A program made the translations under genes and the position numbers. A model generated the notes under the pieces. The model made no database searches and had not been told where the DNA came from. It saw only the letters and a program-made list of their open reading frames with translations. From NCBI RefSeq assembly GCF_044704955.1, contig NC_091995.1, positions 26,536,001-26,600,000 of the forward strand: a stretch of 64,000 nt of DNA. Reading direction: 5' to 3'. Origin of the DNA: Pristiophorus japonicus. Its lineage: Eukaryota. This document shows, piece after piece, positions 5,659-56,026 of the stretch (within the stretch, counting starts at the first letter, position 1; each line of letters opens with the position of its first letter).

Positions 5659-5928
5659 CCGTGATGGTCAGATGGTAGGTTTTGTTGGTTTGACTGATTG
5701 GGTTTGCCACAGTGCAGGTGTAAGAGCCAGATTCCGATTTCTGTACATTCCTAATGATTAAAGTGGTGTTGCCGTCCGACAGCCAATAGCGTTGGTCGGC
5801 TGGGAGCACGACCCCTCCTCTGGTCCACAGAATGGAACTGGCTCTCCCTCTCTGCACCTCACAGCTCAGCGCAACTGTGTGGTTCTTGAGGCTGCAGTTA
5901 CTGGAGATCGAGGGTTTGGAGAGAGGGT
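5659..5928 (-). CDS. IgSF copy A, Ig C2-type exon (CD2/CEACAM/HEPACAM-like)
   Basis: 270 nt, acceptor 'tgtctttctccag|AC', donor 'ACGG|gtaagt', phase 1-1. PLSKPSI..VALSCEV..ILWTRGG..GNTTLIIRNVQKSESGSYTCTVANPIS carries the canonical C-W-C. Confidence 0.85.
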
Positions 5929-6529
5929 CTGGAGAAAGACACAAACAGAGGGGTTTTCACTTAATGAACAAACGCACCAATTTGCTCCCACAAACAGCAA
6001 TGGGATAATGACCAGAAAATCTGGTTTCTGTGTTTGTTGAGGGATAAATATGGCCAGGGTATCAGGGAGAAATCCCCTGTTCTTCAAAATAATGCCATGG
6101 GATCTTTTACATCTACCAGAGAGGGCAGACAAGGCCTCGGTTATTCAATGAGGTTTGTGTGTTCAATCTTAGGTTTTCATTTAAAGTGGATAAAATACAT
6201 GTAGCGAGAACATCAACAAGGTTCAAAATAGTACTGTGCGTAAACTTTAAAGCTTTTCTTACACATCCCCCGAGTCCACACATTGACAACTATTTATATC
6301 ACAGAAACACACACAGCAGTTAGTTTACAGTAAACTCACCTGCACAGCCAGTGAAGAGGTAACACAAAAATAAACTGATTTTCACAGGAACTTAATAAAA
6401 TCTTAATGGGACAGACTTTCCTTAGCGTTGGGACACATGGAGACCCTGGTCACTAACAGAAGCACAAGATGCTCACGATTTCACGCCTAGCCCAGCTCTT
6501 ACACCCAACATTGAAGAGGAAAATTTGCC

Positions 6530-6960
6530 TTATCGTTTACGAAGATCTCAGGTCAAGCCTCACTGCAGGACTTTAGCGCATAATCCAGGCCGACACTTGC
6601 CTGCAGTACTGAGAAAGTGCAGCATTGTCAGAGGTGCTGACCTTTGAAAAATACATTAAACCGAGGCCCTCGGTGCCTGTTTAGTTAAAGATTCCCATGA
6701 CATTAGGTAAAGGATCCCATGACATTAATCCAAAGAAGAGTATGAAAGTTCTCATTTCCTGGCCAATCAATACCATGAAAACTGGATGAACAGGTCATTC
6801 ATCTCATTTACTAATTGTGGGATCTTGCTATGCACAAATTGACTGCCGTGTTTCCCGACATTACAGCAGTGACTACACTTCAAAAAGTACTTCACTGGCT
6901 TGTGAAGCGCTTTGAGATGTACTGAGGAAGTGGAATGTCCTGTATAAATGCAAGTTCCTT
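6530..6960 (+). mobile_element. Deu-domain SINE, near full length
   Basis: 'ttaaaccgaggccc', 'aaagg/aatcccatg', 'acttcaaaaagtacttcactggc' and 'tataaatgcaagtt' tail. Confidence 0.7.
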
Positions 6961-8164
6961 ATTTCTGTCTCGATTTTGTTAGCATCAATTGTTGTGAAGA
7001 TTGTTGGGAACTGGGTCTCGGTGCTTGACAGTACAGGGTGATTGGTTTGAATACAGCTTTCACGTTTAATCAATAGGCCATATAACAGGGACCTTCAGTG
7101 GTATTGGTGCATTCTCCACTGTGGCCAAAGAGGATAGCTGCTCCAGCAGAGATATTTCAGTCCCCACCATGTATAGCGGGCATGTTGGTATTAACACAAT
7201 TTGCCCGCTATCAGTAGCAGATGGGAAAACTGCATTTCGTTATGACAATAGCAACACTCCAATAGCTGGAGAGAGGCAAGGAGTCCAGAGCATGTTCTGG
7301 GAAGCAGGGAGGCTACAAAAGAAAGTTAATCCCTGCAAGAGGGTTAAACATTGCACTGTGTGGCATCTCTTTCAAGAATGGGGATAAATAGCTGTTGAAG
7401 GTCAATAGAAAACTTCAAAACTGAGATGGATAGATATTTGTTAGGCAAGGGTATTAAGGATTGGAGAACAAGGCAGGTAAATGGAGCGAAGATACAGAAC
7501 AGCCATCATCTAAGTGATTGGCAGAACAGGCTGGAGGGGCTGAATTATCTCCTCCTGTTCCGATGGTCCTTTGTTCCACAGTGCTTGGGGACGGGAAGAC
7601 ATTAATCCATCAATGTGTTCAGTAGGTTTTACCAGCAGTCGGATGTCGTCCAAAACTGTTCAAGGGCTGACTGTTTTGTGACTGATGGTCCAGGTATGTT
7701 ATTTGATGCATTATGCAATTCAACAAGTTTGATTTACCATTATCTGAAACAGCTCAATGTATTATAAATAGCCGCTTTGTAAATGGATTCAGTGGAAATG
7801 GCAAATGGTCTGTGCCATTTGTCCGATATAGGCGTTTGCCCGTGATAAGCACAGATGGTGTAAGTGATCGGGATGGTATTTGAAAATGGAAACCACGGGG
7901 AAAGAAAAGTGGCCTGTTCAAAAATGAAAGCCACAATTTTATACTGAGGATAAGAAAGTGCCAATAAATACTGCGGTCTGGTGCTTAATAGAAGCAAAAA
8001 CTCTTAATTTTTCAATAAATTACAAGGGTTTTTAACACTGCTGTCAAATTTCCTATGACCCTGTTGATGGACACAACTTATTTTTGATATAAAAGATGGC
8101 AACATCGTTGTGCGATTTCAGAAAGAGATCTCACAGAGTCTGAAACTACACGACTGCTGGCACA

Positions 8165-8260
8165 GGGAGAGCTTAACCACACACAATAAAGGGGAGGGAG
8201 GTAGAGCTCATTCACACACAATAAAGGTGGGGGGAGTAGGGATTGCTTATTCATACACAA
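8165..8260. repeat. Intronic minisatellite 'gagctcattcacacacaataaagggg'
   Basis: 2-3 imperfect units. Homologues at about 20470-20580, 28268-28372, 28577-28677 and, inverted, 46488-46560. Confidence 0.7.
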
Positions 8261-8429
8261 TTAGTTGTTGAATTTTAGTTTCCCAGTCCCCACAATCATT
8301 CTCACAGGCAACCATGGCAACGCGTGAGTCTGCAGAGCAATCTAAAACAAATTTATATCTTCTTCAAACATAAGTGCAGCAGAACATTGCACTGGGTCAC
8401 CACCTGCGAGTTATTTAAATAACACTGAC

Positions 8430-8729
8430 CAAACACCTCGAGAGTTAGAATTCTGGTCCTGTGAGGGTCTAAGTCCACAGTCAATGTGTATCTCCCAGTG
8501 TCTGCCTGCTGTAAATCTTTTCGTAATAAGGATCCATCTGATTTGTTAAATTCAACTCGATTCCTGTACTGGTCAAATATGATGGGATGTATTTTGGTGT
8601 ATTCCATAATGGGAATAGTCCTGCTGGGATCAGAGAATTCCCAGTTGAAATCGGAGAATCCTCTATCAGTTCCAGGGAATCGGATGGAGGAACCTACAGC
8701 AGCCACCATGCTGTCTTTCACCATCTGTG
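8430..8729 (-). CDS. IgSF copy A, cysteine-less Ig V-type exon
   Basis: 300 nt, acceptor 'tattttag|CACAGATG', donor 'TTTG|gtcagt', phase 1-1. GSSIRFP..FNWEF..YRNRVEF..GSLL.KDLQQADTGRYTL. Open frame, but no leader exon found. Confidence 0.8.
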
Positions 8730-9605: not shown

Positions 9606-9724
9606 GCCCCAAGATTCCGCTGAGCCCCCGACCCTCTTTCACCGCAGATTTCCAGAGGACTCGCACTCCGCTCTACCGACTCGCTCCCTCATCGATAGCG
9701 GTGGTCCTGGGCCCGATTGTGAGA

Positions 9725-10980
9725 GAAAGTGTCTGGGGGGGCGGCGGGAGAGAGAGACACTGGGGGATGGGGGGGGGAGAGAGAGAGAGGCTCGTGGGGC
9801 GGGGGGGGGAAGAGAGAGAGAGAGAGAGAGAGGCTGGGGGGGGGGGAGAGGAACTGGGGAGAGGGAGAGGGAGAGGCTGGGGGGAGAGAGAGAGGCTTGG
9901 GGGAAGAGAGAGAGGCTGGGGGGGGAGAGAGAGAGGCTGGGAGGGGAGAGAGAGAGGCTGGGGGGGAGAGAGAGAGGCTGGGGGGGGAGAGAGAGAGGCT
10001 GGGGGGGGGGAGTGAGAGAGGCTCGGGGGGTGGGAGAAAGGCTGAGGGGGAGAGAGAGGCTGGGGGTTAGGGAGAGAGGCTGAGGGGGAGAGAGAGAGGC
10101 TCGGGGGGAGGGAGAGAGGCTGGGGGGGAGAGAGCGGCCGGAGGAGTAGGGAGAGAGGCTGGGGGGTGAGAGGGAGAGGTGGGAGGGTGAGAGGGAGAGG
10201 TGGTAGGGAGAGGTGGGGGGTAGGGTAGAGGGAGAGTCTGGGGGGTGAGAGGGAGAGTCTGGGGGGGAGGGAGAGTGGGGGGAGAGGCGGGGGGAGAGAG
10301 GGAAAGGCGAGGGGGTAGAGGGAGAGTCTGGGGGGTGAGAGGGAGAGTCTGGGGTGAGGGGGAGGGGAGGGAGAGGCGGGGGGAGAGAGGGAGAGGCGGG
10401 GGGGAGGGGGTAGAGAGAGAGTCTGGGGGGGAAGAGGGAGAGGCGGGGGGGAGAGAGGGAGAGGCGGCGGGGGGTAGAGGGAGAGTCTGGGGGGTGAGAG
10501 GGAGAGTCTGGGGGGGAAGGAAGGGGGGAGAGGGAGAGGCGGGGGGAGAGAGGGGGAGGCGGTGGTGTAGAGTGAGAGTCTGGGGGGGGTGAGAGGGAGA
10601 GGCGAGGGAGAGTCTGGGGGGTGAGGGGGAGAATCTGGGGGAGAGGGAGAGGCGGGGGGGAGAGGCTGGGGAGGGGGCGGGGAGGGGGAGAGAGTTTCAC
10701 TGGGGGGGGGGAGAGTGTGGCTGTTGGGTGGGGAGGGGAGAGAGTGTGGCTGTCGGGGGGGCGGGTAGAGAGTGTGGCTGGGGGTGCAGGGGGAGAGAGT
10801 GTGGCTGGGGGGGTGGAGAGGGAGAGAGTGTGGCTGTCGGGGGGGGGAAGGGGAGAGAGTGTGGCTGGGGGGGGGTGAGGGGGAGAGAGTGTGGCTGGGG
10901 GGTTGGAGGGGGAGAGAGAGAGAGAGAGAGAGAGCATGGTTGGGGTGGGAGAGAGAGACATGGGTGGGGAGGGGGGGGAG
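9725..10980. repeat. Second G/A-rich low-complexity tract
   Basis: Sub-arrays of 'gagagagaggctggggggg', 'gagggagagtctgggggg' and 'gagagtgtggctggggg'. Confidence 0.95.
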
Positions 10981-11478
10981 ACGGATCACCTTCTTCCAAC
11001 TACCTACAAGGGACATCGTTGGAGTGGATAATATCCAGATGTCATGACACTGTCACTATTCACTTCATACCCAATAACCCTGTTACCAATCCATATACAA
11101 TGTCTGCCCCATCTATGGCAGGGGGGCAGGGGGGGGGGCGCGGGGAGTGTGGAAGGATGCCCTTGTGCTGGGGTAAGGCACTTCGGCTGGGGGAGGCATG
11201 CACTTGGACTGGGGTAAGGCACTTTTGCTGGCTCTTGCTGTCTTCTGGGGAGCTCTGTCCTCTGTTGCTTCAGGAAGTCAAAGTGGAGCGAGGTACAATT
11301 TGCAAAGTCAGGGAGACCTTGGGATGGGCGGTTCCATTTACACATTCCAGTGAAACTTCAGGGTGCAGCTAATCGCCAAGGGGTAGACAAAGGGTAGGGC
11401 ACGGCGGCCATTTTCACAGTACAATTAATTGCGTCCATAACTTAAGCCACTGCCAGAGGACACGCAGCTCTCTCAGTG

Positions 11479-11531
11479 TTAGACAGTGACATCCAACAGG
11501 AAGAGTGCCATCAGGACTCACCGTCGTGTGA
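11479..11531 (-). other. Candidate terminal exon of IgSF copy B (hydrophobic tail, possibly GPI signal, with in-frame TGA)
   Basis: Strong pyrimidine tract 'tttttttttctttttgcatcag|'. Phase-1 frame reads VTRR*VLMALFLLDVTV*. Lies 3' of the B C2 exon, beyond the RTE insertion. Confidence 0.3.
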
Positions 11532-11681
11532 CTGATGCAAAAAGAAAAAAAAATAGTATCTGAAATACAAACAGGAAACAAACAGAAATTTACAGCATGT
11601 AGATCAGCCCCTGAAGGAGAAAGGTGGACTGCACTGGCCGAGAGGCAGGGTTGCAGTGGTATAGTGTAAGGGTTCTACGGT

Positions 11682-14600
11682 GTCCGAGTAAGCTGGCTGC
11701 TGCGGTGGCAACTCCCTAGGGAGCTCCCCTGCTGTGCAACTCCCATCTTCTGCCATCCGGCAACTTTCCACCCTCAGCCTCCCCACTCCCACTGCCTAAA
11801 CTTCCCCTAGCTCTAACAGACCCTGATAGGAGGTTTTAAACATTTAAACCCTTACTCTAAACCCAACCCTGCGAATCCCACAAGATCGGGCGTACCTCAG
11901 GCTTCCCACCGCACCACCCATCGGCGATGATGACCGCGCCTCCTGTGGCGGTGAGCTGGACCTCTCCCCACCTTCGGCGGCCTCCTCCTTGGCATCGACT
12001 CACCTATGTCACTTGATCCTTGATCCACGACGGAGCCAGGTGAGCCTCCGATCGGGCCTCCACCCCTCCAGCGGCAATCAGGCCCCCCCACCCCCTGCGG
12101 CGGCAGATGGTCCTTTCCTCCATGACGACAGCTGGGGTCTCCTTCCCCACCAGTGACCTGGCTTCTTCTCCTCCTCCAGCACGTGGTGAGTACCATGGCT
12201 GTGACCGCCCCCCCCCCGACCTTCCACTCTGAACCCCAGTGGGCCACTGACCCTTCCAATGCCTGCCCCCAACCAAGCCTCGGATCACCTACCATCAAGG
12301 GCGCTAGTCAGCGCCGAGCCAACGGCCAACATCTCGCCGTAAGCAACTCGGCCCATATAGCAGTGCCTGGTCTCCAGTCATCTTGGACCCCCTTGCCACT
12401 GGACCAAGACTTTGCTCAGCTAATCCCGTGTGGTAGTCGGTGTTCAACGACCACCCCATATTAAAGGAACTCACGCACAGGCATCTTCCACGCCTCTAAC
12501 ATGAAGTTCGGGACCTGGAACGTCAGGATCCTCATGGATAACTCCAACAGCGACAGGCTGGAACACCACATAGCCATAGTTGCCCGGGAACTTAGACGCT
12601 TTGATATCGACATCGCCGCCCTAAGCGAGACCTGGCGGGCAGGGGAAGGCCAGCTCAAGGAGCAAGATGGAAGTTACACCTTCTTCCGGAAAGGGAAACC
12701 AGAGAAAGAACGCCGCCTCCACGGCGTCAGCTTTGCCATCAAAAACGAGCTGGTCGACCGCCTCAAAGACTCCCCCCGTGGGGTTAACAAACGCCTCATG
12801 ACTCTTCGACTCACCCTATCCTGGAATCAATGTGCCACAGTCATCAGTGCGTACGCCCCAACACTCGATGCAACAGATGAGACCAAAGAGGTTTTTTACT
12901 CAAATCTCGAAAAATCCCTGTCCCACGTCCCCGTGAACGACAAACTGATCCTCCTTGTTGACTTCAACGCCAGGGTCGGCAAGGATACAGCCCTCTGGGG
13001 AGATGTGATTGGCAGAGACGGGGTAAGAAAAGCCAACTCCAGCGATACTCTTATCCTGCCAAAATGTCTAGAACATGAACTTGTCATCAACAACACCTTG
13101 TTCTGGAGGGATAACTACAAAGCATCATGGGAACACCCTCGCTCCAAACATTGGCACCTGCTCGACTAGGTCAGCGTCCGAGCCAGGGATCACAAGGATG
13201 TGCACATCACCCGCACCATGACAGGAGTTGATGACTGCTGGACAGAACACCACCTAATCCAATCCACAATTGACATCAACATAGTTCCAAAGCAGAGAGA
13301 GCAGCAGAAGCATTGCTGCAAAATGTCAATGCTGGGGCACTTAAGAACCCAGCTAAGAGAGCCCTCTACAGCCAGTGCCTCACAATTTACCTGGAGTGCC
13401 TTGATGACTCTGAGACGCAGAATACCCACAGCTTGGTCTGCCCTCCAGGCCTCCATAACCAATGCCTGCAAAGAGACATTCGGTCACTCAACCAGGAAAC
13501 ACCAGGATTGGTTTGATGAGAATGATCAGGAGATCCAAGTGCTAATAGATCGCAAGCGCAGGCCATTTCTGAGCCTTAAACAACAACCCAACTCGGGAGC
13601 AGTAAAGCTGGCTTTACAGACGGCTCAAGGCTGAGGTTCAACAAAAAATCCGGGACCTAAAGAACAGGTCGTGGATGGAGAAAGCACAGGAGATACAGCA
13701 GTTGGCCGACAGCCATGATATGCGAGGATTCTTCATCGCAGTCAAGGCCACCTACGGTCCAAGCACCTAGGGCCCCACCCCACTGCTGGCCAAGAACGGG
13801 GAAACACTCATCAAGGACACCGAGGCAGTCAGGGCCCACTGGAAGGAGCACTTCGAAGATCTCCTCATTCAAGACTCCGCCTTTGTCTCGAGTGTTCTCG
13901 ACTCCATCCCCCCACCATCTCCAGTAAAACCCCAACACAGCATGAGGTAGAAAAAGCCATAAGACAGTTTAAGAACAACAAGACTACGGGAGCGGATGGA
14001 ATCCTGCTGAGGCACTGAAGTATGGCGGAGAGGCACTGTTGGCGCAAATAAATGACCTCGTCTCTCTCATCTGGAGGGAGGAGAGCACGCCGGGAGATCT
14101 CAGAGATGCAGTGATCGTGACCATCTTTAAAAAAGGGGACAAGTTTGACTGCGGCAAATACATAGGAATCTCCCTATTATCAGCCACTAGGAAAGTCGTC
14201 GCTAGTGTCCTCCTCAACCATCTTCTCCCTGTGGCCGAGGAGCTCCTCCCGGAGTCACAGTGTAGATTTCTTCCAGTACGGGTTACAACAGACATGATTT
14301 TCACAGCACGAATGCTGCAGGAAAAATGTAGGGAACAACACCAGCCCTTATACCTGGCCTTCTTCGACCTTACAAAGACCTTGGCACTGTTAAACGCGAG
14401 GGTCTATGGAGCGTCCACCTCCGTTTCGGATGCCCCCAAAAGTTCGTCACCATCCTCCGCCTGCTACACGATGACATACAGTTCATGATCCTTATCAACA
14501 GATCCATTACAGACCCAATCCACGTCCGGTCCAGGGTCAAACGGCTGAGTCATCGCTCCAACACTCTCCTCAATCTTCCTCGCTGCCATGCTCCACCTCA

Positions 14601-15729
14601 CAGTCAACAAGCTCCCCGCTGGAGTGGAACTAAACTACAGAACCAGTGGGAACCTATTCAACCTTCGCCGTCTCCAGGCCAGGTCCAAGACCACCTCAAC
14701 CTCTGTCGTCGAGCTACAGTTCGCGGATGATGCCTGCGTCTGCACACATACAGAGGCTGAAATCCAGGACATAGTCGACATATTTACTGAGGCGTATGAA
14801 GCATGGGTCTTATGGTAAACATCCATAAGACAAAGGTCCTACACCAGCCTGTCCTCACTGCACAGCACTGCCCCCTGCTCATCAAGATCCACGGCGCGGC
14901 CCTGGACAATGTGGACCATTTCCCTTACCTCGGGAGCCTCCTATCAACAAGAGCAGACATTGATGACGAGCGTCAACACCGCCTCCAGTGCGCCAGTGCA
15001 GCCTTCGGCCGCCTGAGGAAAAGAGTGTTTGAAGACCAGGGCCTCAAAACTGCCACCAAGCTCATGGTCTACAGGGTTGTAGTAATACCGACCCTTCTAT
15101 ATGATTCAGAATCATGGACCATGTACAGTAGACACCTCAAGTCACTGGAGAAATACCACCAACGATACCTCCGCAAGATCCTACAAGTCCCCTGGGCAGA
15201 CAGATGCACCAACATTAGCGTCCTCGACCAGGCCAACATCCCCAGCATTGAAGCACTGACCACACCCGATCAGCTCCGCTGGGCAGGCCACATCGTTCGC
15301 ATGCCAGACACGAGACTCCCAAAGCAAGCGCTCTACTTGGAACTCCTTCATGGCAAACGAGCCAAAGGTGGGCAGAGAAAACATTACAAGGACACCCTCA
15401 AAGCCTCCCTGATAAAGTGCAACATCCCCACTGACACCTGGGAGTCCCTGGCCAAAGACTGCCCCAATTGGAGGAAGTGCATCCGGGAAGGCGTTGCCCA
15501 CCTCAAGTCTCATTGCCGAGAGCATGCAGAAATCAAGCGCCGGCAGCGGAAAGAGCGTGCGGCAAACCTGACCCACCCACCCTTTCCTTCAACGACTATC
15601 TGTCCCACCTGTGACAGGGACTGTGGTTCTCGTATTGGACTGTTCAGCCACCTAAGGACTCATTTTAAGAGTGGAAGCAAGTCATCCTCGATTCCGAGGG
15701 ACTGCCTATGATGATAATGATGATGATGT
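11682..15729 (+). mobile_element. RTE-clade LINE, near full length, decayed
   Basis: ORF start MKFGTWNVRILMD (APE endonuclease) at 12501, RT LQFADDAC, C-terminal CPTC..SHLRTH zinc finger, (ATG)n tail. Flanked by an imperfect ~42-bp direct repeat (11640-11681 and 15732-15773). Confidence 0.9.
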
Positions 15730-16009
15730 TTGAGAGGCAGGGTTGTAGTGGTGCAGTGTGAGGGTTCTACAGTATAGAGCCTAGTTTCATAGAATCACAG
15801 CACAAATGGAGGCCATCCAGCCCATCGTGCCCGTGCTGTCTCTTAGAAGGAGCAATCCAAATGAGTTCTACTCCCATGCTCTTTCCCCAAAGCCCTGCCC
15901 GGAATTTCAAACAAACTTGTCTTATTCGGACTGCGCCAACTTAGCACCTGTTTTCACCCTTAGGCCAAAAATAATCCCTGCTAACTTTTGGATAATATGT
16001 TAAACTTAG

Positions 16010-16290
16010 GCCCCATCTACCCTCTCAAGTGAACGCTAAAGATCCCACAACACAACTTCGAAGAAGAACAGGAGAGTTCTCCTGCTCAATATTTATGCTT
16101 CAACCAACATCAATGAAAAGCAGATTATCTGGTCATTATCTTATTGATGTTTGTGGGTCCTTGCTGTGCATAAATTGTCTGCTGCCTTTCCTGCATTACA
16201 ACAGTGACTGCACTTCAGAGAGTACTTCACTGGCTGTAAAGCCTTTTGGGACATCCTGAGGATATGAAAGGCGCTATATAAATGCAAGCT
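16010..16290 (+). mobile_element. Deu-domain SINE (paralogue of 4322-4600)
   Basis: Near-identical sequence and flanks to the copy-A element. Confidence 0.7.
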
Positions 16291-16600
16291 CTAGCGGTAC
16301 TAGAAGGGCCCGTGTTGTCAGCATCAATCAGTTGAGCAGGGGAGGAAGAAGTGACAGGATCTTAAATAAGTATTCGACTGATGCCATTGTGGGGTAGTCA
16401 CAGCGTCAGTTACAACTGCCTGGGTTTTGAAACACATTGAGGAGCAAAACAGGTTCATTATAAGGATAACATCTTGTGCCATACTGAACATAAACCAAAG
16501 TACAGAAGCTTGGTTAGACCACAATTACAGTACTAGACACAGTTCTGATCTCAAAAGGGACATAGACACTGGGGAAGGTGAAAATAGGATTTACAGTAAT

Positions 16601-16873
16601 CTTTTTCTTCTTAGGCGGTACCTTATATCGAGGATGACTTGCTTCCACACCAAAAAGGGATGAGTTCCCAGGTGTTTCAATTAAGGACCTGACATTCCAG
16701 GTCCTGAAATACATATTGAAGGGTGGAAGATGCCTGTGCGTGGATTTTTTCAACGTGTGGTGGCCGCTGCACACCAGTCACTACACGGGCTTGACAGAGC
16801 TAGGTCTTGGTCCAGTGGCAAGGATTAACTAAGACTACTGGAGATCAGCTCTGTTGCACAGACCTAGTGTGCA
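16601..16873 (-). mobile_element. Bipartite RTE-derived short element (paralogue of 4908-5160)
   Basis: Same RTE 5' plus 3' fusion at the equivalent position. Confidence 0.75.
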
Positions 16874-17369
16874 CAAATAATGATAGGTTATAAGATGGTG
16901 ATAACCGAGAGGTCATCACTATCAGAAAAGATTGAATAGGCCGAGGCTCTTTTCTCCAGAAAAGAGAAAGCGGAGAGATGGCCTGATAACGTTGTTTACG
17001 ATTATGAATGGGTTTGATAGGGTCGACGTAGAGAAGATGTTTCCCTTTGTGGTGAGCCCAAAACTAGGGTCCATAAATGTAACAGTCATCATCAAATCCA
17101 ACAGGAAATTCAGGAGAAAATTCTTTACCCAGAGAATGATTTGAATGTGAACCTCGCCAGCACAAGGAGTGGTTGAGGGGAATAGTATTGATGCCTTTTA
17201 AGGGGAAGGTGACAGGAGGGATAAAGGAATAGAAAGATATGCTGATAGATGAAGTAGGGAGGGAGGAAGCTCGTGTGGAGCATGAACACCAGCAGGGACC
17301 GGTTGTGCCGAGTGGCCTGTTTCTGTGCTGTAGTCTCTATGTAATTCTATGTAACCCTGACGGACTTAC

Positions 17370-17633
17370 CCGTGATGGTCAGATGGTAGGTGTTGCTGGT
17401 TCGACTGACTGGGTTTGCCACAGTGCAGGTGTAAGAGTCCGATTTCTGTATATTCCTCATGATTAAAGTTGTGTTGCCATCTGACAGCCAATAGCGTTGG
17501 TCGGCTGGGAGCACGACCCCTCCTCTGGTCCACAGAATGAAACTGGCTCTCCCTCTCTGCACCTCACAGCTCAGCGCAACTGTGTGGTTCTCGGGGCTGA
17601 AGTTACAGGAGATCGAGGGTTTGGAGAGAGGGT
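17370..17633 (-). CDS. IgSF copy B, Ig C2-type exon
   Basis: 264 nt (6-nt in-frame deletion relative to A and C), intact AG/GT sites, C-W-C retained. Its partner V exon is frameshifted, so this copy is probably a pseudogene. Confidence 0.75.
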
Positions 17634-18249
17634 CTGGAGAAAGACACAAACAGAGGGGTTTTCACTGAATGAACAAACGCACCAATTTGCTCCCACAAAC
17701 AGCAATGGGATAATGACCAGAAAATCTGGTTTCTGTGTTTGTTGAGGGATAAATAGAGGCCAGGATATCAGGGAGAAATCCCTTGTTCTTCAAAATAATG
17801 CCATGGGATCTTTTACAACTACCGGAGAGGGCAGACAAGGCCTCGGTTATTCAATGAGGTTTGTGTGTTCAATCTTAGGTTTTCATTTAAAGTGGATAAA
17901 ATACATGCAGCGAGAACATCAACAAGGTTCAAAATAGTACTGTGCGTAAACTGTAAAGCTTTCCTTACACATCCCCCGAGTCCACACATTGACAAATATT
18001 TATATCACACACACACAGCAGTTAGTTTGCTGTAAACTCACCTTCACAGCCAGTGAAGAGGTAACACAAAAATTAACTAATTTTCACAGGAACTTAATAA
18101 AATCTTAATGGGACAGACTTTCCTTAGCGTTGGGACACATGAAGGCCCTGGTCACTAACACAAGCACAAGAAGCTCACGACTTCATGCCTAGCCCAGCTC
18201 TTGCATCCAACACTGAAGAGGAAAATTTGCCTTATCGTTTATGAAGTGC

Positions 18250-18652
18250 TCAGGTCAAGCCTCACTACAAGACTTTAGCGCATAATCCAGGCCAACACTT
18301 GCCTGCAATATTGAGAGAGTGCAGCATTGTCAGAGCTGCTGACCTAAGATGTTAAACCAAGGCCCCAGATGCCTGTTTAGTTAAAGAATCCCATGATATT
18401 AAGTAAAGGATCCCATGACATTAATGAAAAGAGTATGAAAGTTCTCATTTCCTGGCCAATCAACACCATGAAAACTTGATGAACAGGTCATTCATCTCAT
18501 TTACTGATTGTGTGATCTTGCTGTGAGCAAATTGGCTGCCGTGTTTCCCTACATTACAACAGTGACTGCACTTCAAAAAGTACTTCACTGGCTTGTGAAG
18601 CGCTTTGAGATGTCCTGAGGAAGTGAAATGTCCTGCATAAATGCAAGTTCCT
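18250..18652 (+). mobile_element. Deu-domain SINE (paralogue of 6530-6960)
   Basis: Same core and tail, equivalent intron position. Confidence 0.7.
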
Positions 18653-19440
18653 TATTTCTGTCTCAATTGTTGCTAGCACCAATTGTTGTGAAGATTGTTG
18701 GGAACTGGGTCTCGGTGCTTGACAGTACAGGGTGATTGGTTTGATTACAGCTTTCATGTTTAATCAATAGGCCATAAACAGGGACTTTCAGCGGTACTGG
18801 CGCAATCTCCACTGTGGCCAAAGAGTACAGCTGCTCCAGCAGAGATATTACAGTCTCCACCATGTATAGCGGGCATGTTGGTATTAACATAATTTGCCCG
18901 CTATCAGTAGCAGATGGGGAAACTGCCTCAATTATGACAATAGCAACAGTCCAATAGTTTGAGAGAGGCACGGAGTCCAGCACGTGTTCTGGGAAGCAGG
19001 GAGGCTGCGAAAGAAAGTTAATCCCTGCAAGAAGGTTAAACATCACACTGTGTGGCATCTCGTTCAAGAATGGGAATAAATAGCTGTTGAAGTTAGAGGG
19101 CAAGAGAAAACATCAAAACTGAGATGGATAGATTTTTGTTTGGCAAGGGTATTAAGGATTGGAGAACAAGGCAGGTAAATGGAGTGAAGATACAGAACAG
19201 CCAACAGCTAAGAGAGGGGCTGAATTATCTCCTCCTGTTCCTATGTTCCTTTGTTCCACAGTGCTTGGGGATGGCAAGACATTAATCCATCAATGTGTTC
19301 AGTAGGTTTTACCAGCAGTCGGATATCGTCCAAAACCGTTCATGGGCTGATTTTTTTGTGTCTGATGGTCCAAGTATGTTATTTGATGCACTATGCAATT
19401 CGGCAAGTTTGGTCTGCCATTGTCTGAAACAGCTCAATGT

Positions 19441-20190
19441 ATTAGGAAAAGGGAAGGTGCAACGAGACCTGGGTGTCATGGTACATCAGTCACTGAAGGT
19501 TAGCATGCAGGTACAGCAGGCGGTTAAGAAAGCAAATGGCATGTTGGCCTTCATAGCGAGGGGATTTGAATACAGGGGCAGGGAGGTGTTGCTACAGTTG
19601 TACAGGGCCTTGGTGAGGCCACATCTGGAGTATTGTGTACAGTTTTGGTCTCCTAACTTGAGGAAGGACATTCTTGCTATTGAGGGAGTGCAGCGAAGAT
19701 TCACCAGACTGATTCCCGGGATGGCGGGACTGACCTATCAAGAAAGACTGGATCAACTGGGCTTGTATTCACTGGAGTTCAGAAGAATGAGAGGGGACCT
19801 CATAGAAACGTTTAAAATTCTGACGGGTTTAGACAGGTTAGATGCAGGAAGAATGTTCCCAATGTTTGGGAAGTCCAAAACCAGGGGTCACAGTCTGAGG
19901 ATAAGGGGTAAGCCATTTAGGACCGAGATGAGGAGAAACTTCTTCACCCAGAGAGTGGTGAACCTGTAGAATTCTCTACCACAGAAAGTAGTTGAGGCCA
20001 ATTCACTAAATATATTCAAAAGGGAGTTAGATGAAGTCCTTACTACTCGGGGGATCAAGGGTTATGGCGAGAAAGCAGGAAGGGGGTACTGAAGTTTCAT
20101 GTTCAGCCATGAACTCATTGAATGGCGGTGCAGGCTAGAAGGGCTGAATGGCCTGCTCCTGCACCTATTTTCTATGTTTTCTATGTTTCT
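19441..20190 (+). mobile_element. CR1 LINE 3' fragment
   Basis: QRDLGV..RPHLEYCVQFWSP..LEFRRMRGDLIE with a (TTTCTATG)n tail; absent from copy A. Confidence 0.9.
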
Positions 20191-20838
20191 ATTACAAATG
20201 GCTTCAGTGGAAATGGCCTGTTCAAAAATGAAAGCCACAATTTTATAGTGAGGATAAGAAAGTGCCAAATAAATACTGCAGTCTGGTGCCTTATAGAAGC
20301 AAAAACTCTCCCGTTGTCAATAAAATACAAGGGTTTTTAACACTGCTGTCAAATTTCCCATGACCCTGTTGATGGACACAACTTATTTTTGATATGAAAG
20401 ATGGCAACATCATTGGGAGATTTCAGAAAGAGATCCCAGAGTCTGAAACTACACCGATTGTTGGCACAGGGAGAGCTAAACCACACACAATAAAGGTGGG
20501 GGTGGGTGGAAGAGCTCATTCACACAATAAAGAGGGGGGGGGAAGAGCTGATTCACATACAATAAAGCAGAGGTGGGCAATTATTTAGGCCGGAGGGCCA
20601 CTTGACAAGTTTTGGTGAGCTGTTGAGGGCCGCCCACCAAAGTTCCACCAACCGCACGGAACCAACCAGGCGGATCCTCGGCTCCCGCCACTGGAAGAGA
20701 TACAGCGCATGTGTGGCTGTGTACTTGCCGGCTGGGCAGCAAATTTAAAGCGACCGACTTAAAACAAATTAGAGAGAACATTGCATAAACATAAACATTA
20801 ATTCAGATCGTAGTCAGATGCTATCTTATATACACAAC

Positions 20839-23800
20839 TCAAAGGCTGCATTGGCGCACTGGAGGTGGTATTGAATCTCCGCATCAGTGTCTGACTTTGT
20901 TGATAAGAGGCTCCCGAGGTATGGGAAATGGTCCACGTTGTCCAGGGCCGCGCCATGACTGGGGGGCAGTGCTGTGCGGTGAGGACAGGCTGGTGAAGGA
21001 CCTTTGTTTTACGGATGTTAAGCGTAAGGCCTATGCTTTCATATCCTCGGTGAATACATCGACTATATCCTGGAGTTCAGCCTCAGAATGTGAGCAGACG
21101 CAGGCATCATCTGCGTACTGTAGCTCAATGACAGAGGTTGGTGTGGTGTATGTAGCACACAAATCACTGACTCCACACGGTCTGGTGTGAGTCTAACTGC
21201 TGTGACCTTCGTCCTTTATTGTTCAACTCCAGAGTGCCTCCCAGGTGTGGTGGTCAGCCTTATATAGTCCTTGTTGCAGGTACTACCAGGGTTTCCCACC
21301 ACAGCGCCCTCTGTGGTGTGGCATAGTGCTTACATTACATTTAAGGTACTGGGACGATACACACATCATTATATAACATCACCTTTCCCCCCCCCCACCT
21401 GGACGCAGGACAACGATACACACATCATTACATAAAATCACACTTGTCCAACCGAAGGCAGGTGGGCATAGACAGTGTGTTAGTATGGTACATATTATCT
21501 GGTACATTAACTGGTTATTGACTGGTAGCTGATCCTTGATTTCCTTGTTAGCCGTTATCATTAATTGTACTTCATCCATTATTTTACACAAATACAGTGG
21601 CCATTCAGCATTAAAAAAGTAGTTCTTATTATAAATTCACTATCTCACATTAACGTTGCTCATTTTAGACTTGCTCTGCCTCTAACAGAAGTCATTTGTG
21701 GGGACCACCTTTTTGTAAGGCCCTTTTAAGATTCCCGGTTGCATTTCCTTTTTAAGGTGCCATCTTTGATGCAGGAGGATTCCACGAGGCTTCTCCTTGG
21801 GCGCCGCCATCTTTGATGCTCTGCAGCTCAGACACGATGCCGCCGCCATCTTCTTCTCCGCCGCTCCGGATGCCCTCCGCCGTCGCAGCTTCCGCTCCCC
21901 TCCGCTGCCACCTGACTTGCCGCCTCTCCTGTGGCCGTCGTGGCCTCTCCAGCGGCTGCACTTGCCGCGTCCCCCCGCGGCCGCCATGGCCGCCGACCTC
22001 CAGCTGCTGCCGCCGCCCGACGCTAACAGCTCCTTGGCTGGGCCCACCCGACGGCACCTTCCTCTGTGGGGCCCACCCATCGGCACCTTCCTCTGCGGGA
22101 CTCTTCCAAACCACTGGCCATCCTGAATCCCTCGGCACCCTGCCCGCAGCGCCCCGCCGGCTCACCTCCCCCCCCACTAGGCCCCTCTGTGCAGGGCTGC
22201 TTGCCTGTGGGGGCTGGGGCTGCAGGGTCTCTGTGTGAGATCCGGGCCTGGGACTTGCCTGTGGGGATTGAGGCTGCAGCTCCAGCTCGGTCGGCGCTGC
22301 TCTCTGGGGACCTGGGGCATGGCAGCACCCCGGGGAGCAGCAGCCTGTGGAGTGATGAAGTCTTCCCGGCTCCCACGGACCGTCCCCATCCACCTTCAGC
22401 CGAGGAGTGTCGGCCCATCGCCTGCAACGACCCACAGGGGTAAAGCGTGCGACTCGTCCCCGTGGGATACCTGCACCATCGCTCTGCCAAGAACAGGTAT
22501 TAGTTCCCTGGTGTAGGTACGCACCTTCACCGTGACCGGAACCAGCTTGGGTCGTGCAGCTGGGTTAATCCACAGTTTATCAAAAGTTCTCCGACTCATC
22601 AACGATGGACCCGAGCCCGTGTCCACTTCCATACTCACTGGGACTCCGTTGATTTTTACTTCTCTTATCACTGGGGGCGAATCGTCGGTGCACGTATACA
22701 GTCCAAGCACCTCATCTTCTTCTACCTGCTCCTCGCTGAATAGTGGATCATCCCCCATATCCTCAGCCACATGGTGAGTCTGATTTCTTTTACACATACG
22801 CTGAAGGTGGCCTTTAATGTGGCAGCTATTGCACGTGTACTCTGCAAACCTGCACCGGTGAGCCCCATGGCTTCCTCCACAACGTCAGCATGGTGCTGCT
22901 TGATTGGCCCCCCTCGGCAGACTCTGAGCTCCAGGATCCCGAGGTCCGTGCTCTCTGCCCCGGGCAGAGCCACATTCTTCAGTTTTGTCTGTGGTGGGCG
23001 CTATCCTGTGGACAGTGCCTGCTGGGTTCGAGACTGTGTGGATTATTTGCTTGGTGCTGCAAGTCGAGGTCATATATGCCCGGCTGATGGTGATGGCCTT
23101 TGTCAGAGTGACTGTGGGTTCCATGGCCAGCAGCTTGTGAAGGAGGCCCTCGTGGCCAATCCCCATAACGAAAACATCCCGCACAGGTGTGCCCCAAAAT
23201 CACACGGCGCCGTGAGTCTCCTGAGGTCCGCAGCATATTTGGTGATATCCTGGCCCTCGGGTCTGCAGTGGTGGTAAAATTTGTATCTGGCCGTGAGGAT
23301 GCTCTCCTTCGGTTTCAACTGGTCACGAATGAGTTCAGTCAGCTCCTCGTATGACTTGTCCCTGGCGCTCCCAGGTGCCAGCAAATCCCTGACGAGACAG
23401 TAAACCTCATCTCCACAACTGGAGAGCAATATCGCCTTATGCTTATCTCTCATTGCGTCCGTGTCCTCCGTCAGGTCGTTTGCTGTGAAGTAGTACTCGA
23501 GCCTTTCCGTAAAGGCCTCCCAATCATTGCCCACGGTAAAATCCTTTAGCGAGCCCAGAGTAGCCATGGTTGCGTGGAGTTCGTCCGCTTCCTCGTTGCC
23601 AATGTGGTGTATGTAGCACACAAATCACTGATTCCACACGGTCTGGTGTGAGTCTAACTGCTGTGACCTTCGTCCTTTATTGTTCAGCTCCAGAGTGCCT
23701 CCCAGGTGTGGTGGTCAGCCTTATATAGTTCTTGTTGCAGGTACTACCAGGGTTTCCCACCACAGCGCCCTCTGTGGTGTGGCATAGTGCTTACATTACA

Positions 23801-33147: not shown

Positions 33148-33179
33148 CATGCCCTGCTAGTTATTTAAATAATACTTAC

Positions 33180-38694: not shown

Positions 38695-41477
38695 ACAGAA
38701 ACGTGGTTGCAGGGTGGCCAAGACTGGGAATTAAACATACAGGGGTATCTGACAATTCGGAAAGATAGACAAGAAGGGAAAGGAGGTGGGGTAGCTCTGT
38801 TAATAAAGGATGATATCAGGGCAGTTGTGAGAGACAATATTGGCTCTAATGAACAAAATGTTGAATCATTGTGGGTGGAGATTAGAGATAGTAAGGGGAA
38901 AAAGTCACTGCTGGGTGTAGTTTATAGGCCCCCAAATAAAAACTTCGCGGTGGGGCGGGCAATAATCAAGGGAATAATGGAGGCATGTGAAAAAGGAACG
39001 GCAGTAATCATGGGGGATTTTAACCTACATATTGATTGGTCAAATCAAATCGCACAGGGTAGCTTGGAGGAGGAATTCATAGAATGCATACGGGATTGTT
39101 TCTTAGAACAGTATGTTACAGAACCTATAAGGGAGCAAGCTATCTTAGATCTGGTCCTGTGTAATGAGACAGGAATAATAAACGATCTCCGAGTAAAAGA
39201 TCCTCTCGGAATGAGTGATCACAGTATAGTTGAATTTGTAATACAGATTGAGGGTGAGGAAATAGTGTCTCAAATGAGCGTACTATGCTTAAGCAAAGGA
39301 GACTACAGTGGGATGAGGGCAGAGTTGGCTAAAGTAGACTGGAAACGCAGACTAAACGGTGGCACAATTGAGCAACAGTGGAGGACTTTAAAGGAGCTCT
39401 TTCATAGTGCTCAACAAAAATATATTCCAGTGAAAAAGAAGCGAGGTATGAGAAGGGATAACCAGCCGTGGATAACCAAGGAAATAAAGGAGAGTATCAA
39501 ATGAAAAACCAATGCCTATAAGGTGGCCAAGGTTAGTTGGAAACTAGAAGATTGGGAAAATTTTAAACGACAGCAAAGAATGACTAAGAAAGCAATAAAG
39601 AAAGGAAAGATAGATTACAAAGGTAAACTTGCGCAAAACATAAAAACGGATAGTAAAAGCTTTTACAGATATATAAAACGGAAAAGTGTGACTAAAGTAA
39701 ATGTTGGTCCCTTAGAAGATGAGAAGGGGGATTTAATAATGGGAAATGTGGAAATGGCTGAGACCTTAAACAATTATTTTGCTTCGGTCTTCACAGTGGA
39801 AGACACAAAAACCATGCCAAAAATTGCTAGTCACAGGAATGTGGGAAGGGAGGACCTTGAGACAATCACTATCACTAGGGGGGTAGTGCTGGACAGGCTA
39901 ATGGGACTCAAGGTAGACAAGTCCCCTGGTCCTGATGAAATGCATCCCAGGGTATTAAAAGAGATGGCGGGAGTTATAGCAGATGCATTCGTTATAATCT
40001 ACCAAAATTCTCTGGACTCTGGGGAGGTACCAGCAGATTGGAAAGCAGCTAGTGTAACGCCTCTGTTTAAAAAAGGGGGCAGACAAAAGGCAGGTAATTA
40101 TAGGCCGGTTAGTTTAACATCTGTAGTGGGGAAAATGCTTGAAACTATCATTAAGGAAGAAATAGCGGGACATCTAGATAGGAATAGTGCAATCAAGCAG
40201 ACGCAACATGGATTCATGAAGGGGAAATCATGTTTAACTAATTTACTGGAATTCTTTGATTATATAACGAGCATGGTGGATAGAGGTGTACCGATGGATG
40301 TGGTGTATTTAGATTTTCAAAAGACATTCGATAAGGTGCCACTCAAAAGGTTACTGCAGAAGATAAAGGTACACGGAGTCAGAGGAAATGCATTAGCATG
40401 GATAGAGAATTGGCTTACGAACAGAAAGCAGAGATACAGGATAAATGGGTCCTTTTCGGGTTGGAAATCGATGGTTAGTGGTGTGCCACAGGGATCGGTG
40501 CTGGGACCACAACTATTTACAATATACATAGATGACCTGGAAGAGGGGACAAAGTGTAGTGTAACAAAATTTGCAGATGACACAAAGATTAGTGGGAAAG
40601 CAAGTTGTGTGGAGGACACAGAGAGGCTGCAAAGAGATTTAGATAGGTTAACTGAATGGGCTAAGGTTTGGCAGATGGAATACAATGTCGGAAATTGTGA
40701 GGTCATCCACCTTGGGAAAAAAAACAGTAAAAGGGAATATTATTTGAATGGGGAGAAATTACAACATGCTGCGGTGCAGAGGGACCTGGGGGTCCTTGTG
40801 CATGAATCCCAAAAACTTAGATTGCAGGTGCAGCAGGTAATCAGGAAGGCGAATGGAATGTTGGCCTTCATTGCGAGAGGGATGGAGTACAAAAGCAGGG
40901 AGGTCCTTCTGCAACTGTATAGGGTATTGGTGAGGCCGCACCTGGAGTGCTGTGTGCAGTTTTGGTCACCTTAATTAAGGAAGGATATACTAGCTTTGGA
41001 GGGAGTACAGAGACGATTCACTAGGCTGATTCCGGAGATGAGGGGGTTACCTTATGATGATAGATTGAGTAGACTGGGTCTTTACTCGTTGGATTTCAGA
41101 GGGGTGATCTTATAGAAACATTTAAAATAATGAAAGGGATAGACAAGATAGAGGCAGAGAGGTTGTTTCCACTGGTTGGGGAGACTAGAACGAGGGGGCA
41201 CAGCCTCAAAATACAGGGGAGCCAATTTAAAACCGAATTGTGAAGCAATTTCTTCTCCCAGAGGGTTGTGAATCTGTGGAATTCTCTGCCCACGGAAGCA
41301 GTTGAGGCGAGCTCATTGAATGTATTCAAGTCACAGATAGATAGATTTTTAACCAATAAGGGAATTAAGGGTTACGGGGAGAGGGCGGGTAAGGGGAGCT
41401 GAGTCCACGGCAGAGCAGGCTCGAGGGGCTAGATGGCCTACTCCTGTTCCTAATTCTTATGTTCTTATGTTCTTATT
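38695..41477 (+). mobile_element. CR1 LINE, nearly complete ORF2
   Basis: ITETWL..GGGVAL..GDFN (EN), GVPQGSVLGP and FADDTK (RT), few stops, (TTCTTATG)n tail. Confidence 0.95.
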
Positions 41478-41599
41478 ACTAATCCAGTAACATAACCATT
41501 GTGCAACCATTCCCAGTTTCTCTCCAATACGCCTGAAATTGACTTTCACCCTCACTGTGCCCATCCTCGACAGGGTAAAGATCCCAGGCTCCTGTCTGG

Positions 41600-41801
41600 C
41601 ACTGAACGGGTGCAATAAATGTTATAACTTCCTACATTAAATAGCACCTGTTGTTGTAATGATATTGAAGTCTCTCTCTCCCTCCCTCTCCCCACCCCCT
41701 AATCCTGAGCTCCGTGTTGAGCTACACTTCCTACTATTCAGCTCCTCCTCCCTTGTTCCGTTACTTAAATCCAATGTCTGAGCGGCGAGATCTCCAGCCA
41801 G
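41600..41801 (+). promoter_or_regulatory. Putative promoter/5'UTR of IgSF copy C
   Basis: Only non-repeat stretch directly upstream of the leader ATG; contains ACTTCCT (ETS-like) and CACCTG motifs. Motif matches only. Confidence 0.3.
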
Positions 41802-41862
41802 ATGAAAACCCTTGTCCTTTCTTTTCTCCGCCTTTTGCACCTTCTCACCGACTGGGCTTCAG
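41802..41862 (+). CDS. IgSF copy C, signal-peptide exon
   Basis: MKTLVLSFLRLLHLLTDWAS plus G|gtaaaa, phase 1. Joins the V exon to give ..WASA/QMVK, an A-x-A cleavage site. Confidence 0.7.
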
Positions 41863-42177
41863 GTAAAACCCTTTCTGTAAGTCGCTTTAAACTGGCGGCG
41901 ACAGCGATTCGGGGCAGGGAGCTGTTTCAGTTGAAACATGAAAATGTAACAGCTGTGCTGAAATGCCGAACAGAAGCCCTCTTGTAAAGTAACAGCACAA
42001 AGACCGGGAGACTCGGCAAACTGTAATTCCCAGAGCGACTCCGTCTCCACACATCTATTGCACTCGCTCAGTGCCAGACAGGAGCCTGGGATGTTCACCA
42101 TTGACTTGGATAGAACGAATATCGGGCGTGTGGGACAACGGGCGATTCCGTCCACTAAAGCCGGGGATTACAAAAAG

Positions 42178-46018: not shown

Positions 46019-46318
46019 CACAGATGGTGAAAGGCAGCATGGTGGCTGCTACAGGTTCCTCCATCCGATTCCCTGGAACTGATAAAGGATTCACCGAATT
46101 CAACTGGGAATTCTCTGATCCCAGCAGGACTATCCCCATTATAGAATACACCAAAAAACATCACATCATATTTGACCAGTACAGTAATCGAGTTGAATTT
46201 AACAAATCAGTCGGATCCTTATTGCTGAAAGATTTACAGGAGGCGGATACTGGGAGATACAAATTGACTGTGGACTTAGACCCTCACAGGACCAGAATTC
46301 TAACTCTCGAGGTGTTTG
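46019..46318 (+). CDS. IgSF copy C, cysteine-less Ig V-type exon
   Basis: 300 nt, 'tattttag|CACAGATG' and 'TTTG|gtaagt'. Intact V-set motifs: W of the C strand, YSNRVEF, GSLLLKDL, DTGRY. Confidence 0.88.
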
Positions 46319-54250: not shown

Positions 54251-54319
54251 ACATTTAATTGTTTCTCACCATTTTAAAAATAGTTATTAAAAATATTTTT
54301 AAAAATATTCTGTTTTTCT

Positions 54320-54690
54320 ATTCATCCTACCAAAGTAAATAACCTCTGATTTCCCACATTATACTCCATCTGCCACCTTGTCCACTCACCTAACCTGTCT
54401 ATATCCTTTTGCAGGCTCTTTGTGTCCTCCTTACAGCTTACGTTCCCACTTAGTTTTGTATCGGCAGCAATCTTGGATACATTACACTCAGTCCCTTCAT
54501 CTAAAACATTAATATAGATTGTAAATAGCCAAAAATATTACCTGCACTGGTTCCCCTTTATGTACCCTGCTAGTTATATCCTCAAAAAACTCTAATAAAT
54601 TTGTTAAACATGATTTCCCTTTCATAAAACCATGTTGACTCTGCCTAATCAGATTATGATTTTGTAAGTGCCCTGTTACCACTTCCTTAA
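54320..54690 (-). mobile_element. CR1 LINE RT fragments
   Basis: SQHGFMKGKSCLTNLLEFFED. Confidence 0.8.
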
Positions 54691-55414
54691 TATATATGAA
54701 TATGTGGGGTGGGGAATGTGTAAGGAAAACTTTAAAGGGACAGCTTAATTTGCACACTGATGGCGATGTTATTGTGAACCTCGTTAATTTTCACGTTACA
54801 TCTATTTTAACCAGTTTAAATTAAAACCTCAGATTAAACACGCAAACCTTATTGAAAAGGAGTTGTGTGGAGAGATGCTGTATCTTTTGTAAAAGGGACT
54901 CGGCCAAGTAGTAAATGTGGCAGATAACATAAATCTGAAATGTTAATGAGTGGATTAAAGGTACTAAAAATATTAACCGTATGTCGGGGATAATTGTTTT
55001 CCTTGAAAGACTTGCATTGATGAATTCATGCTGACGATAGTTACTGTCCGGATAGATGTTTTTTCGTCCATTGGTGAATATTTAGATATTTAATGATTTT
55101 ACAGGTGGTAGAGTTCATGGGTTTATCAAAGCAGCCTTGGCGAGTTGCTGCAGTGCATGCTGTGAGTGTGAATAGCATCAGCCGTTAAAAAGAGCACAGG
55201 TAAAAACACCGAACAAGTGGGGTTACGGGTAGGGCAGTGCATTCTGCACAGGTAGCTATACACTTGTAGCTTGAACTTATAGATTGAGACACAATGTGGC
55301 CACTATTAGGGCAGGGTTCTGAAGCAATGGAGGTGAGCAAACTGGGGGAGACAGGGAAAGGATGAGTCAGAGAGTGAATACTGAATCTCTCTGACTTGCG
55401 ATGTTCTCTTTCGA

Positions 55415-55708
55415 ATGAGATGTTAAACCGGGGCCCCGTCTCAGGTGGACGTAAAAGATCCCATAGCACTATTTAACAGAAGAGCAGGGGAGTTCTCCTT
55501 AATATCCAAGCCAATATTTTCCCTCAACAAGCAGCTAAACCAAGTTATCTGGTAATTATATCATTGCTGTTGTGGGAGCTTGCTGAGGGCAATTTGGTGG
55601 CTGGATTTCCTACATTACAACAGTGACGACAATTCAAAAGTCCTGCATTGGCTGTAAAGCACTTTGGCACATCCTGAAGTCATGAAAAGTGCTGTATAAA
55701 TGCAAGTT
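55415..55708 (+). mobile_element. Deu-domain SINE
   Basis: 'gatgttaaaccgggccccgtctcaggtggacgtaaaagatccca' through 'tataaatgcaagt'. Confidence 0.8.
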
Positions 55709-55756
55709 GGTGCGTTTGTTCATTGTGAAAACCCCTCTATTTGTGTCTTTCTCCAG

Positions 55757-56026
55757 ATCCACTCTCCAAACCCTTGATCTCCAGTAACTGCAGCCTCGAG
55801 AACCACACAGTTGTGCTGAGCTGTGAGGTGCAGAGAGGGAGAGCCAGTTCCATTCTGTGGACCAGAGGAGGGGTCATGCTCCCAGCCGACCAACGCTATT
55901 GGCTGTTGGACGGCAACACCACTTTAATCATTAAGAATGCACAGAAATTGGACTCTGACACTTACACCTGCACTGTGACAAACCCAGTCAGTCGAACCAA
56001 CAACACCTACCATCTAATCATCACGG
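55757..56026 (+). CDS. IgSF copy C, Ig C2-type exon
   Basis: 270 nt, 'tgtctttctccag|AT' and 'ACGG|gtaagt'. C-W-C, DSDTYTC, NPVS; N-glycosylation sequons NCS, NHT, NTT, NNT. Confidence 0.88.

Follow-up and report, generated by a model that had tools for sequence, protein, structure and literature searches.

In the immunoglobulin (Ig) superfamily, a cysteine-free V-type domain followed by a C2-type domain is the architecture of the CD2/SLAM, CEACAM and HEPACAM proteins. In the excerpts of the papers cited here, the SLAM family is defined together with the tandem V-C2 arrangement of CD229 (PMC11012012), and the CEACAM family by a cysteine-free IgV-like N domain, a subsequent IgC-like domain with two cysteines and the phasing of its exons (PMC4079198, PMC5112662). 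A skate expressed sequence tag is taken as a cartilaginous-fish CEACAM and synteny markers are given (PMC4079198, PMC3628338); CEACAM genes lie near LIPE, BCL3, ATP1A3 and TOMM40, with the LIPE/BCL3 synteny treated in PMC5112662 and PMC3628338, and the frog ceacam clusters are defined by synteny and motifs (PMC5112662). Nurse shark Cd2 and Slamf6 are used as markers in PMC10529500, CEACAM/PSG and CD2 are listed as amniote-level clusters in PMC13262535, and the excerpt of PMC11372145 contains none of the whole words CD2, CD48, CD58, CEACAM and HEPACAM. Here we describe a locus with this V-C2 architecture in the Japanese sawshark, Pristiophorus japonicus, located in a stretch of 64,000 nucleotides (contig NC_091995.1, positions 26,536,001 to 26,600,000) that is referred to in its full length as the window.

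The window contains three V+C2 exon cassettes, A and B on the minus strand and C on the plus strand. With a probability of about 0.6, these are duplicates of a gene that is present throughout the elasmobranchs, in which A and B are likely to be leaderless, decaying spares, B is frameshifted and C alone has a leader, while the intact product is predicted to be a short-tailed or glycosylphosphatidylinositol (GPI)-anchored adhesion ligand in the manner of CD48 and CD58. The locus is real but more ordinary than the original prediction of a family of receptor genes: it consists of duplicated cassettes of an annotated, poorly named elasmobranch Ig-superfamily gene.

Exon anatomy and state of the three cassettes

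Cassette A consists of a V exon at 8430-8729 on the minus strand (VA; 300 nt, open, donor GTCAGT, with an L>R change in a conserved column of the E strand) and a C2 exon at 5659-5928 on the same strand (CA; 270 nt, open). Cassette B, also on the minus strand, has its V exon at 33180-33453 (VB; 274 nt, with a 26-bp frameshift deletion near 33258) and its C2 exon at 17370-17633 (CB; 264 nt, lacking 6 bp in frame within the D-x-G-x-Y-x-C motif). The exons of copy C are located on the plus strand at 46019-46318 (VC; 300 nt, open) and 55757-56026 (CC; 270 nt, open, with G>D in the D-x-G-x-Y-x-C motif). An AG acceptor and a GT donor in phase 1-1 are present at all six exons, and the V-C2 introns are 2.5 kb in A, 15.5 kb in B and 9.4 kb in C. 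VA and VC contain no cysteine and CA, CB and CC contain three each; Pfam V-set was matched by VC (E 1.5e-6) and VA (E 3e-5, below the curated cut-off), and Ig_3/I-set by all three C2 exons, in agreement with the predicted CD2/SLAM, CEACAM and HEPACAM architecture. The six-exon pattern is far above chance. Coordinates and splice sites confirm the predicted number, phase and strand of the exons, and the introns, which had been called homologous, differ by 7-13% in collinear blocks, with 20-21% in one block against C. The first inspection of the locus had missed the leader exon, the inverted repeat surrounding it and the deletions in VB and CB.

The leader (signal-peptide) exon of copy C is located at 41802-41862 on the plus strand and comprises 20 codons plus 1 nt, with the phase-1 donor GTAAAA. 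It is the sole leader in the window, where a profile of 20 leaders matched one of 2848 six-frame pieces (41802-41861, 25.1 bits; runner-up 7.2). No membrane-anchor exon was found in the window with a profile of 23 anchor segments (2848 six-frame pieces, best 8.4 bits), which in a control recovered five out of five held-out anchors at 19-57 bits. By these scans, the stretch between B and A holds neither a leader nor an anchor exon, and the anchor exon of C would lie to the right of position 64000. A weak anchor-like match at 15887 on the minus strand ends in a stop and is without an acceptor, and was rejected. Behind cassette B, 38 nt at 11522-11559 on the minus strand are bounded by a good AG acceptor and by a GTGAGT donor; they match the tail of no relative and may be a chance occurrence. 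The claim of three gene copies does not hold given the single leader, the lack of an anchor exon in the window and the frameshift in VB; the unit is the V+C2 cassette, as in the sawshark protein P0006 and the sequencing record 27 described below.

The deletion in VB shifts the reading frame such that the spliced frame of B stops at the V-C2 junction. We counted departures at columns that were at least 85% identical across 21 orthologues. VB departs at 10 of the 40 conserved V columns, compared with 4 for VA and 1 for VC (orthologues: mean 2.1, range 0-6), and CC departs at 3 of the 30 conserved C2 columns, with 2 each for CA and CB (mean 0.9, range 0-4). By this measure, only B is clearly beyond the range of the orthologues. 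Judged from the sequence, B is certainly dead, A and B are without a leader in the window and C is possibly intact. Exon divergence between copies is 5.4-9.6%. The ratios of nonsynonymous to synonymous substitutions (dN/dS) for pooled V+C2 were 1.16 for A-C, 1.64 for A-B and 1.09 for B-C (Fisher p 0.32-0.86), giving neither a purifying signal nor a significant positive one between copies on these few codons. The inter-copy V differences fall on the C-C'-C'' region in 7 of 18 cases, a concentration that is not significant (p 0.12).

It is very improbable that a single gene was duplicated by the assembly or as haplotypes to give these copies, although a window with so much self-matching sequence is hard to assemble and VA is nearly identical to the first V domain of P0006. 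The exons differ by 5-10%, the copies have private insertions, to which the original prediction had pointed, CA is just 87% identical to the first C2 domain of P0006, and seven of the eight contigs listed from the DNA sequencing run X1 match the C region, the only region compared, with 0 differences.

Relatives in sharks and rays, and probable transcripts

A search with the V exon returned seven longer proteins, all from elasmobranchs. A profile search yielded 42 matches, of which 30 represent the same gene in 20 named shark and ray species, with 49-70% identity to the Heterodontus protein, while the others are nine shark paralogues at 37-44% and three bird or mammal proteins at 24-35%. The nearest matches outside the sharks are a protein named CD48 from a bird (35%) and a SLAMF9-like protein from a bear (29%), and no further sawshark protein cluster of 47-457 amino acids is among the 42 matches. 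A search of 1.84 billion representatives was dominated by many-domain Ig proteins and added one single-match relative, P0176, at 38%. The usual form of the protein is a leader followed by V, C2, a hydrophobic stretch and a short end. Its automatic names conflict (CEACAM1/2/6/8-like, HEPACAM-like, CD48-like, JAM-A-like, A33-like, PSG-like and unc-89-like), with HEPACAM being the most frequent, and with at least seven names in use the gene is indeed not assignable to a named one. Our literature search found no paper on it, although supplements may bear on it.

The window copies resemble this unnamed gene (P0006-P0036) in leader type, exon borders and sequence clade, and have 85-97% (VA and VC) and 83-90% (C2) protein identity to P0006, VA being 97% identical to its domain V1 and CA 87% to its C1. 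They differ as further paralogous cassettes with a different leader, of which B is broken, A and B are leaderless and none has an anchor exon in the window. Domain number varies among the relatives. In Pristiophorus japonicus, P0006 reads leader-V-C2-V-C2-transmembrane and P0007 leader-V-V-C2-transmembrane, and P0008 of the stingray Hemitrygon reads leader-V-V-V-C2. The V tree places VA, VC and both V domains of P0006 in one clade (support 99/96) and the three stingray V domains with those of other rays. Since the sawshark domains fall together and the stingray domains with rays, their number has grown independently; separate changes of domain number are seen in sawshark, in stingray and in skates. 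This tree does not include VB, and the C2 tree does not include P0012, which has no full C2; the isoform-like entries P0023, P0032 and P0036 and five of the nine multi-pass paralogues are absent from the trees.

The paralogues in question (P0037-P0041 and P0043-P0046) have a V-C2 part, after which most carry several hydrophobic segments in a multi-pass-like manner. In six of seven species their longest contig is the same as that of the short form, which suggests linkage, and they may be partners of the short form or an undescribed subfamily.

It is unlikely that the window holds three separate receptor genes, at least two of them working, from a lineage-specific immune family under birth-and-death evolution. 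Because the window copies fall together with proteins of the Japanese sawshark, the duplication is indeed lineage-specific; one copy is dead while A and C are open, skates carry several versions (3 entries in Amblyraja and 4 in Rhinoraja), and the V differences lean towards C-C'-C''. The gene itself, however, is elasmobranch-wide and already annotated, A and B are leaderless with no anchor between them, and neither signalling motifs nor significant positive selection were seen. Of the family as first proposed, the lineage-specific duplication stands but a lineage-specific gene does not, and there is no sign of selection between the copies.

We also compared sequencing runs with the segment 41400-56100, for which eight records were listed per run and the individuals differ. 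The pieces from runs X5-X7 start exactly at exon acceptors and appear to be spliced RNA. Record 27 of X7 contains C2 at its positions 73-342 (270 letters, 18 differences) followed by V at 343-600 (258 letters, 17 differences), cut exactly at the exon ends, with a source copy about 93% like C. The records listed show 16-19 differences from VC in their V pieces and 13-18 from CC in their C2 pieces. For A, 20 differences are expected in V (16 on a shorter range, equalling one record) and 17-19 in C2, and for B more, with gaps. The P0006 domains need a minimum of 10-11 (V) and 11-16 (C2) changes, and the minima for record 27 against C1 and V2 are 16 and 10. For A the corresponding counts are 19 and 20, and record 27 equals neither A nor B. 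The copy whose expression is seen is therefore consistent with the P0006 gene and, on these counts, is not C. Since a direct C2-to-V junction and a V-C2-V-C2 protein both exist, cassettes seem to have been duplicated inside one gene. Among the X5-X7 records listed, none extends over the leader and none is identical to C, but transposon matches dominate among them, so this is not evidence that A or C is silent.

These records also bear on an alternative in which a single long minus-strand gene, with its leader to the right and its anchor to the left of the window, contains A and B as internal cassettes, with C nested in the opposite orientation, B skipped and A spliced in. Tandem cassettes in one transcript do exist, as in P0006 and record 27, the stretch from B to A is without leader or anchor, the GA-rich blocks following A and B suggest that the array continues to the left of position 1, and VA is 97% like a V1 of the expressed type. 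We nevertheless consider such a gene unlikely, since VB combines good splice sites with a frameshift and would have to be skipped every time, none of the RNA-like records listed has the difference counts of A or B, and the first intron would have to exceed 30 kb and contain a whole antisense paralogue. The 1-1 phase of all exons means that an extra cassette is either spliced in frame, with a longer ectodomain as in SLAMF3/CD229, or skipped.

The inverted repeat and a proposed duplication history

The leader exon of C is enclosed by an inverted repeat of 49 bp and 90% identity, with the left arm at 41574-41622, upstream of the leader exon, and the right arm at 42051-42099, in intron 1 of copy C. 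The arms are 428 bp apart and have five mismatches, with a longest interior identical run of 25 bp; no further copy of the arm sequence is present in the window, and the repeat sits midway between the opposed cassette arrays. Only three other inverted matches within 1.5 kb were found across the 64 kb, and these were transposon-like or shorter.

We propose that unequal crossing-over, together with a single inverted duplication, raised the number of cassettes and would have left A and B leaderless. The inverted repeat may be the stump of that inverted duplication, because its arms differ by 10%, as the introns do; the breakpoint would have been in intron 1, placing a leaderless gene body head-to-head with C. 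A and B would then have arisen by tandem duplication, as suggested by their common LINE (long interspersed nuclear element) site. The tandem unit around CA (2430-7764, minus strand) is 90% identical to 14131-19444 around CB, including introns and the common LINE. Behind CB, this LINE spans 11640-15773 on the plus strand and has a 42-bp target-site duplication (11640-11681 and 15732-15773); the same site is found in A at 4040-4081, and C carries its own LINE elsewhere. Since the site is common to both, the LINE was inserted before A and B duplicated, and tandem duplication probably separated A and B once they had diverged from C, or else the two were homogenised. The V tree pairs VA with P0006 V1 (99/91) and the C2 tree pairs CB with P0006 C1 (97/87), which gives the cassettes a mosaic look, such as unequal crossing-over or conversion within the V-C2 intron would produce.

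The same arrangement could be taken for an invertible DNA switch, in which the segment 41623-42050 with promoter and leader flips between the arms, pointing at either C or B/A and choosing the ectodomain displayed per cell or per individual. The sole leader does lie between opposed arrays and is flanked by arms that have no other copy in the window, where comparable inverted matches are few. Yet an X1 contig covering 41824-42201 (0 differences, depth 8) continues without a break across the right arm, in the orientation of the assembly, and the 15 of 5477 joints listed include none that changes strand at the arms, although rare somatic flips could escape contigs. The arms themselves are imperfect, the four loose matches in the window to recombination signal sequences are not near the leader, and VB, the first V to be reached after a flip, is frameshifted. 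To our knowledge, no phase-variation device with an invertible leader is known in vertebrates, and a literature search on such exons in vertebrates gave only unrelated papers. A flipping leader would be a new way of switching a surface protein in a vertebrate, but we hold it to be highly improbable.

Self-matches cover about 69% of the window, mostly to LINEs and pieces of long terminal repeat (LTR) retrotransposons. Decayed LTR-retrotransposon and LINE pieces at 20560-33150 account for the enlarged V-C2 intron of B, which contains paired terminal repeats at 21142-21366/23603-23827 (98%), 25217-25453/27833-28069 (92%) and 28678-28848/32966-33140 (91%); these nested remnants (21142-33140) could date the decay of B. 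Two young LINEs at 39192-41476 and 57299-59618 are 93% identical, have opposite orientations and contain long open reverse-transcriptase frames, and one of them abuts the region upstream of the leader. Long GA-rich low-complexity blocks at 1-2430 and 9700-11000 occupy the same place behind A and B, and the array may continue leftwards. No other host gene was seen in the window and there were no Rfam matches in it.

Predicted protein and family relationships

The AlphaFold model of the relative P0010 (27-row alignment, predicted local distance difference test score 77.5) shows a V and a C2 domain and a single helix at the C terminus. Foldseek placed the CD48/CD2 chimera 2dru first and mouse CEACAM1 at ranks 2-3, with nectins and JAM close. 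The VIA-align Z scores were 14.3 for nectin-1 (root-mean-square deviation 2.3, 102 aligned), 13.9 for JAML, 13.3 for CD48 (2.0, 91), 12.6 for CD84 and CD58 and 12.4 for 2B4, and CD48, CD84, CD58 and 2B4 made up five of the first 11 rows. V alone gave weak PDB matches to JAML, SLAMF6 and CD48, with CEACAMs in none of the seven rows; the CEACAM matches of the profile start at position 83 and lie mostly in C2.

In 25 relatives, the hydrophobic stretch is followed by 2-70 residues (median 9), and by at most 18 in 18 of them. The patterns of immunoreceptor tyrosine-based inhibitory, activation and switch motifs (ITIM, ITAM and ITSM) are absent from 24 of these, with one chance-like match in the remaining one, and the term receptor, in its signalling sense, is unsupported. 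Sequence entropy among the V domains of the orthologues is highest in the C-C'-C'' region (1.6 versus 0.5-1.3 elsewhere), as expected of a binding face. A V-domain homodimer prediction for P0010 scored 0.00 and gave no answer. Because of the likeness in fold and sequence and the short, motif-free ends of the relatives, the protein probably acts as a glycosylated adhesion ligand that does not signal, most like those of the CD48/CD58 or GPI-CEACAM type. On contact with another cell, the front face of V would bind its own kind or a related protein there, and the tail would send no signal of its own.

No single family name fits the gene on the characters compared. The N-terminal V without a disulfide is shared with CD2/SLAM, in that cysteines are absent from VA, VC and 17 of 21 orthologues and one is present in the other four, and the model has a V-set fold. 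The second of the two intradomain C2 disulfides of CD2/SLAM is absent from the window copies, however, and identity to the solved structures is about 20%. The four-cysteine C2 pattern 9/22/71/84, seen in 6 of 26 relatives, differs from the 19/25/69/89 of the SLAMF9-named protein; the extra pair 9 and 84 co-occurs in these six (carpet sharks, a ray and sawshark C1), 84 never being present without 9. CD48, CD58, SLAMF8 and SLAMF9, which do not signal, have a GPI anchor or a short tail without ITSM; the relatives of the window copies have short, motif-free ends, and the tandem V-C2-V-C2 of P0006 is like that of SLAMF3/CD229. CEACAMs are similar in the cysteine-free N domain, the IgC-like domain with two cysteines, the NPVS loop in C2, the conserved exon phase and the lineage-specific expansions, but 24 of 25 relatives have no ITIM or ITAM pattern, the V+C2 pair is repeated rather than pairs of C2, and V alone matches no CEACAM among its seven weak PDB rows. 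The leader-V-C2-transmembrane layout is that of HEPACAM/GlialCAM. HEPACAM has a long cytoplasmic tail and is highly conserved, in contrast to the median of nine residues here and the mere 49-70% identity between shark orthologues, and no bony-vertebrate HEPACAM is among the 42 profile matches, in a search that needs common 5-residue words. The tree contained just two named bony-vertebrate rows, both on long branches.

Several observations weigh against spare cassettes of a CD48-like ligand gene. The fold ranks are largely ties, with nectin-1 and JAML above CD48, and the best PDB sequence matches, in the C2 domain and the profile, are CEACAM5 and CEACAM1. The exons of A are open with usable splice sites, and a dN/dS near 1 on 190 codons fits a mixture of purifying and positive selection equally well. 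The leader and anchor searches cover the window, so that a minus-strand leader to the right of 64000 and an anchor to the left of position 1 may exist for A and B. No homology was found beyond the 49-bp arms in 19 local alignments compared with shuffles, of which three, all short, barely beat the best of 20 shuffles (37 versus 31, 28 versus 23 and 34 versus 32). Finally, we infer that X5-X7 are spliced RNA, the kind of run not being on record.

The significance of the locus is modest, since duplication and decay of cassettes are ordinary in Ig-superfamily clusters and predictions of the gene already exist for 20 species. The gene lacks a stable name and may correspond, in cartilaginous fish, to the CD2/SLAM or CEACAM ligands that do not signal. 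Its placement would be informative on the point at which the CD2/SLAM, CEACAM and HEPACAM lines diverged.

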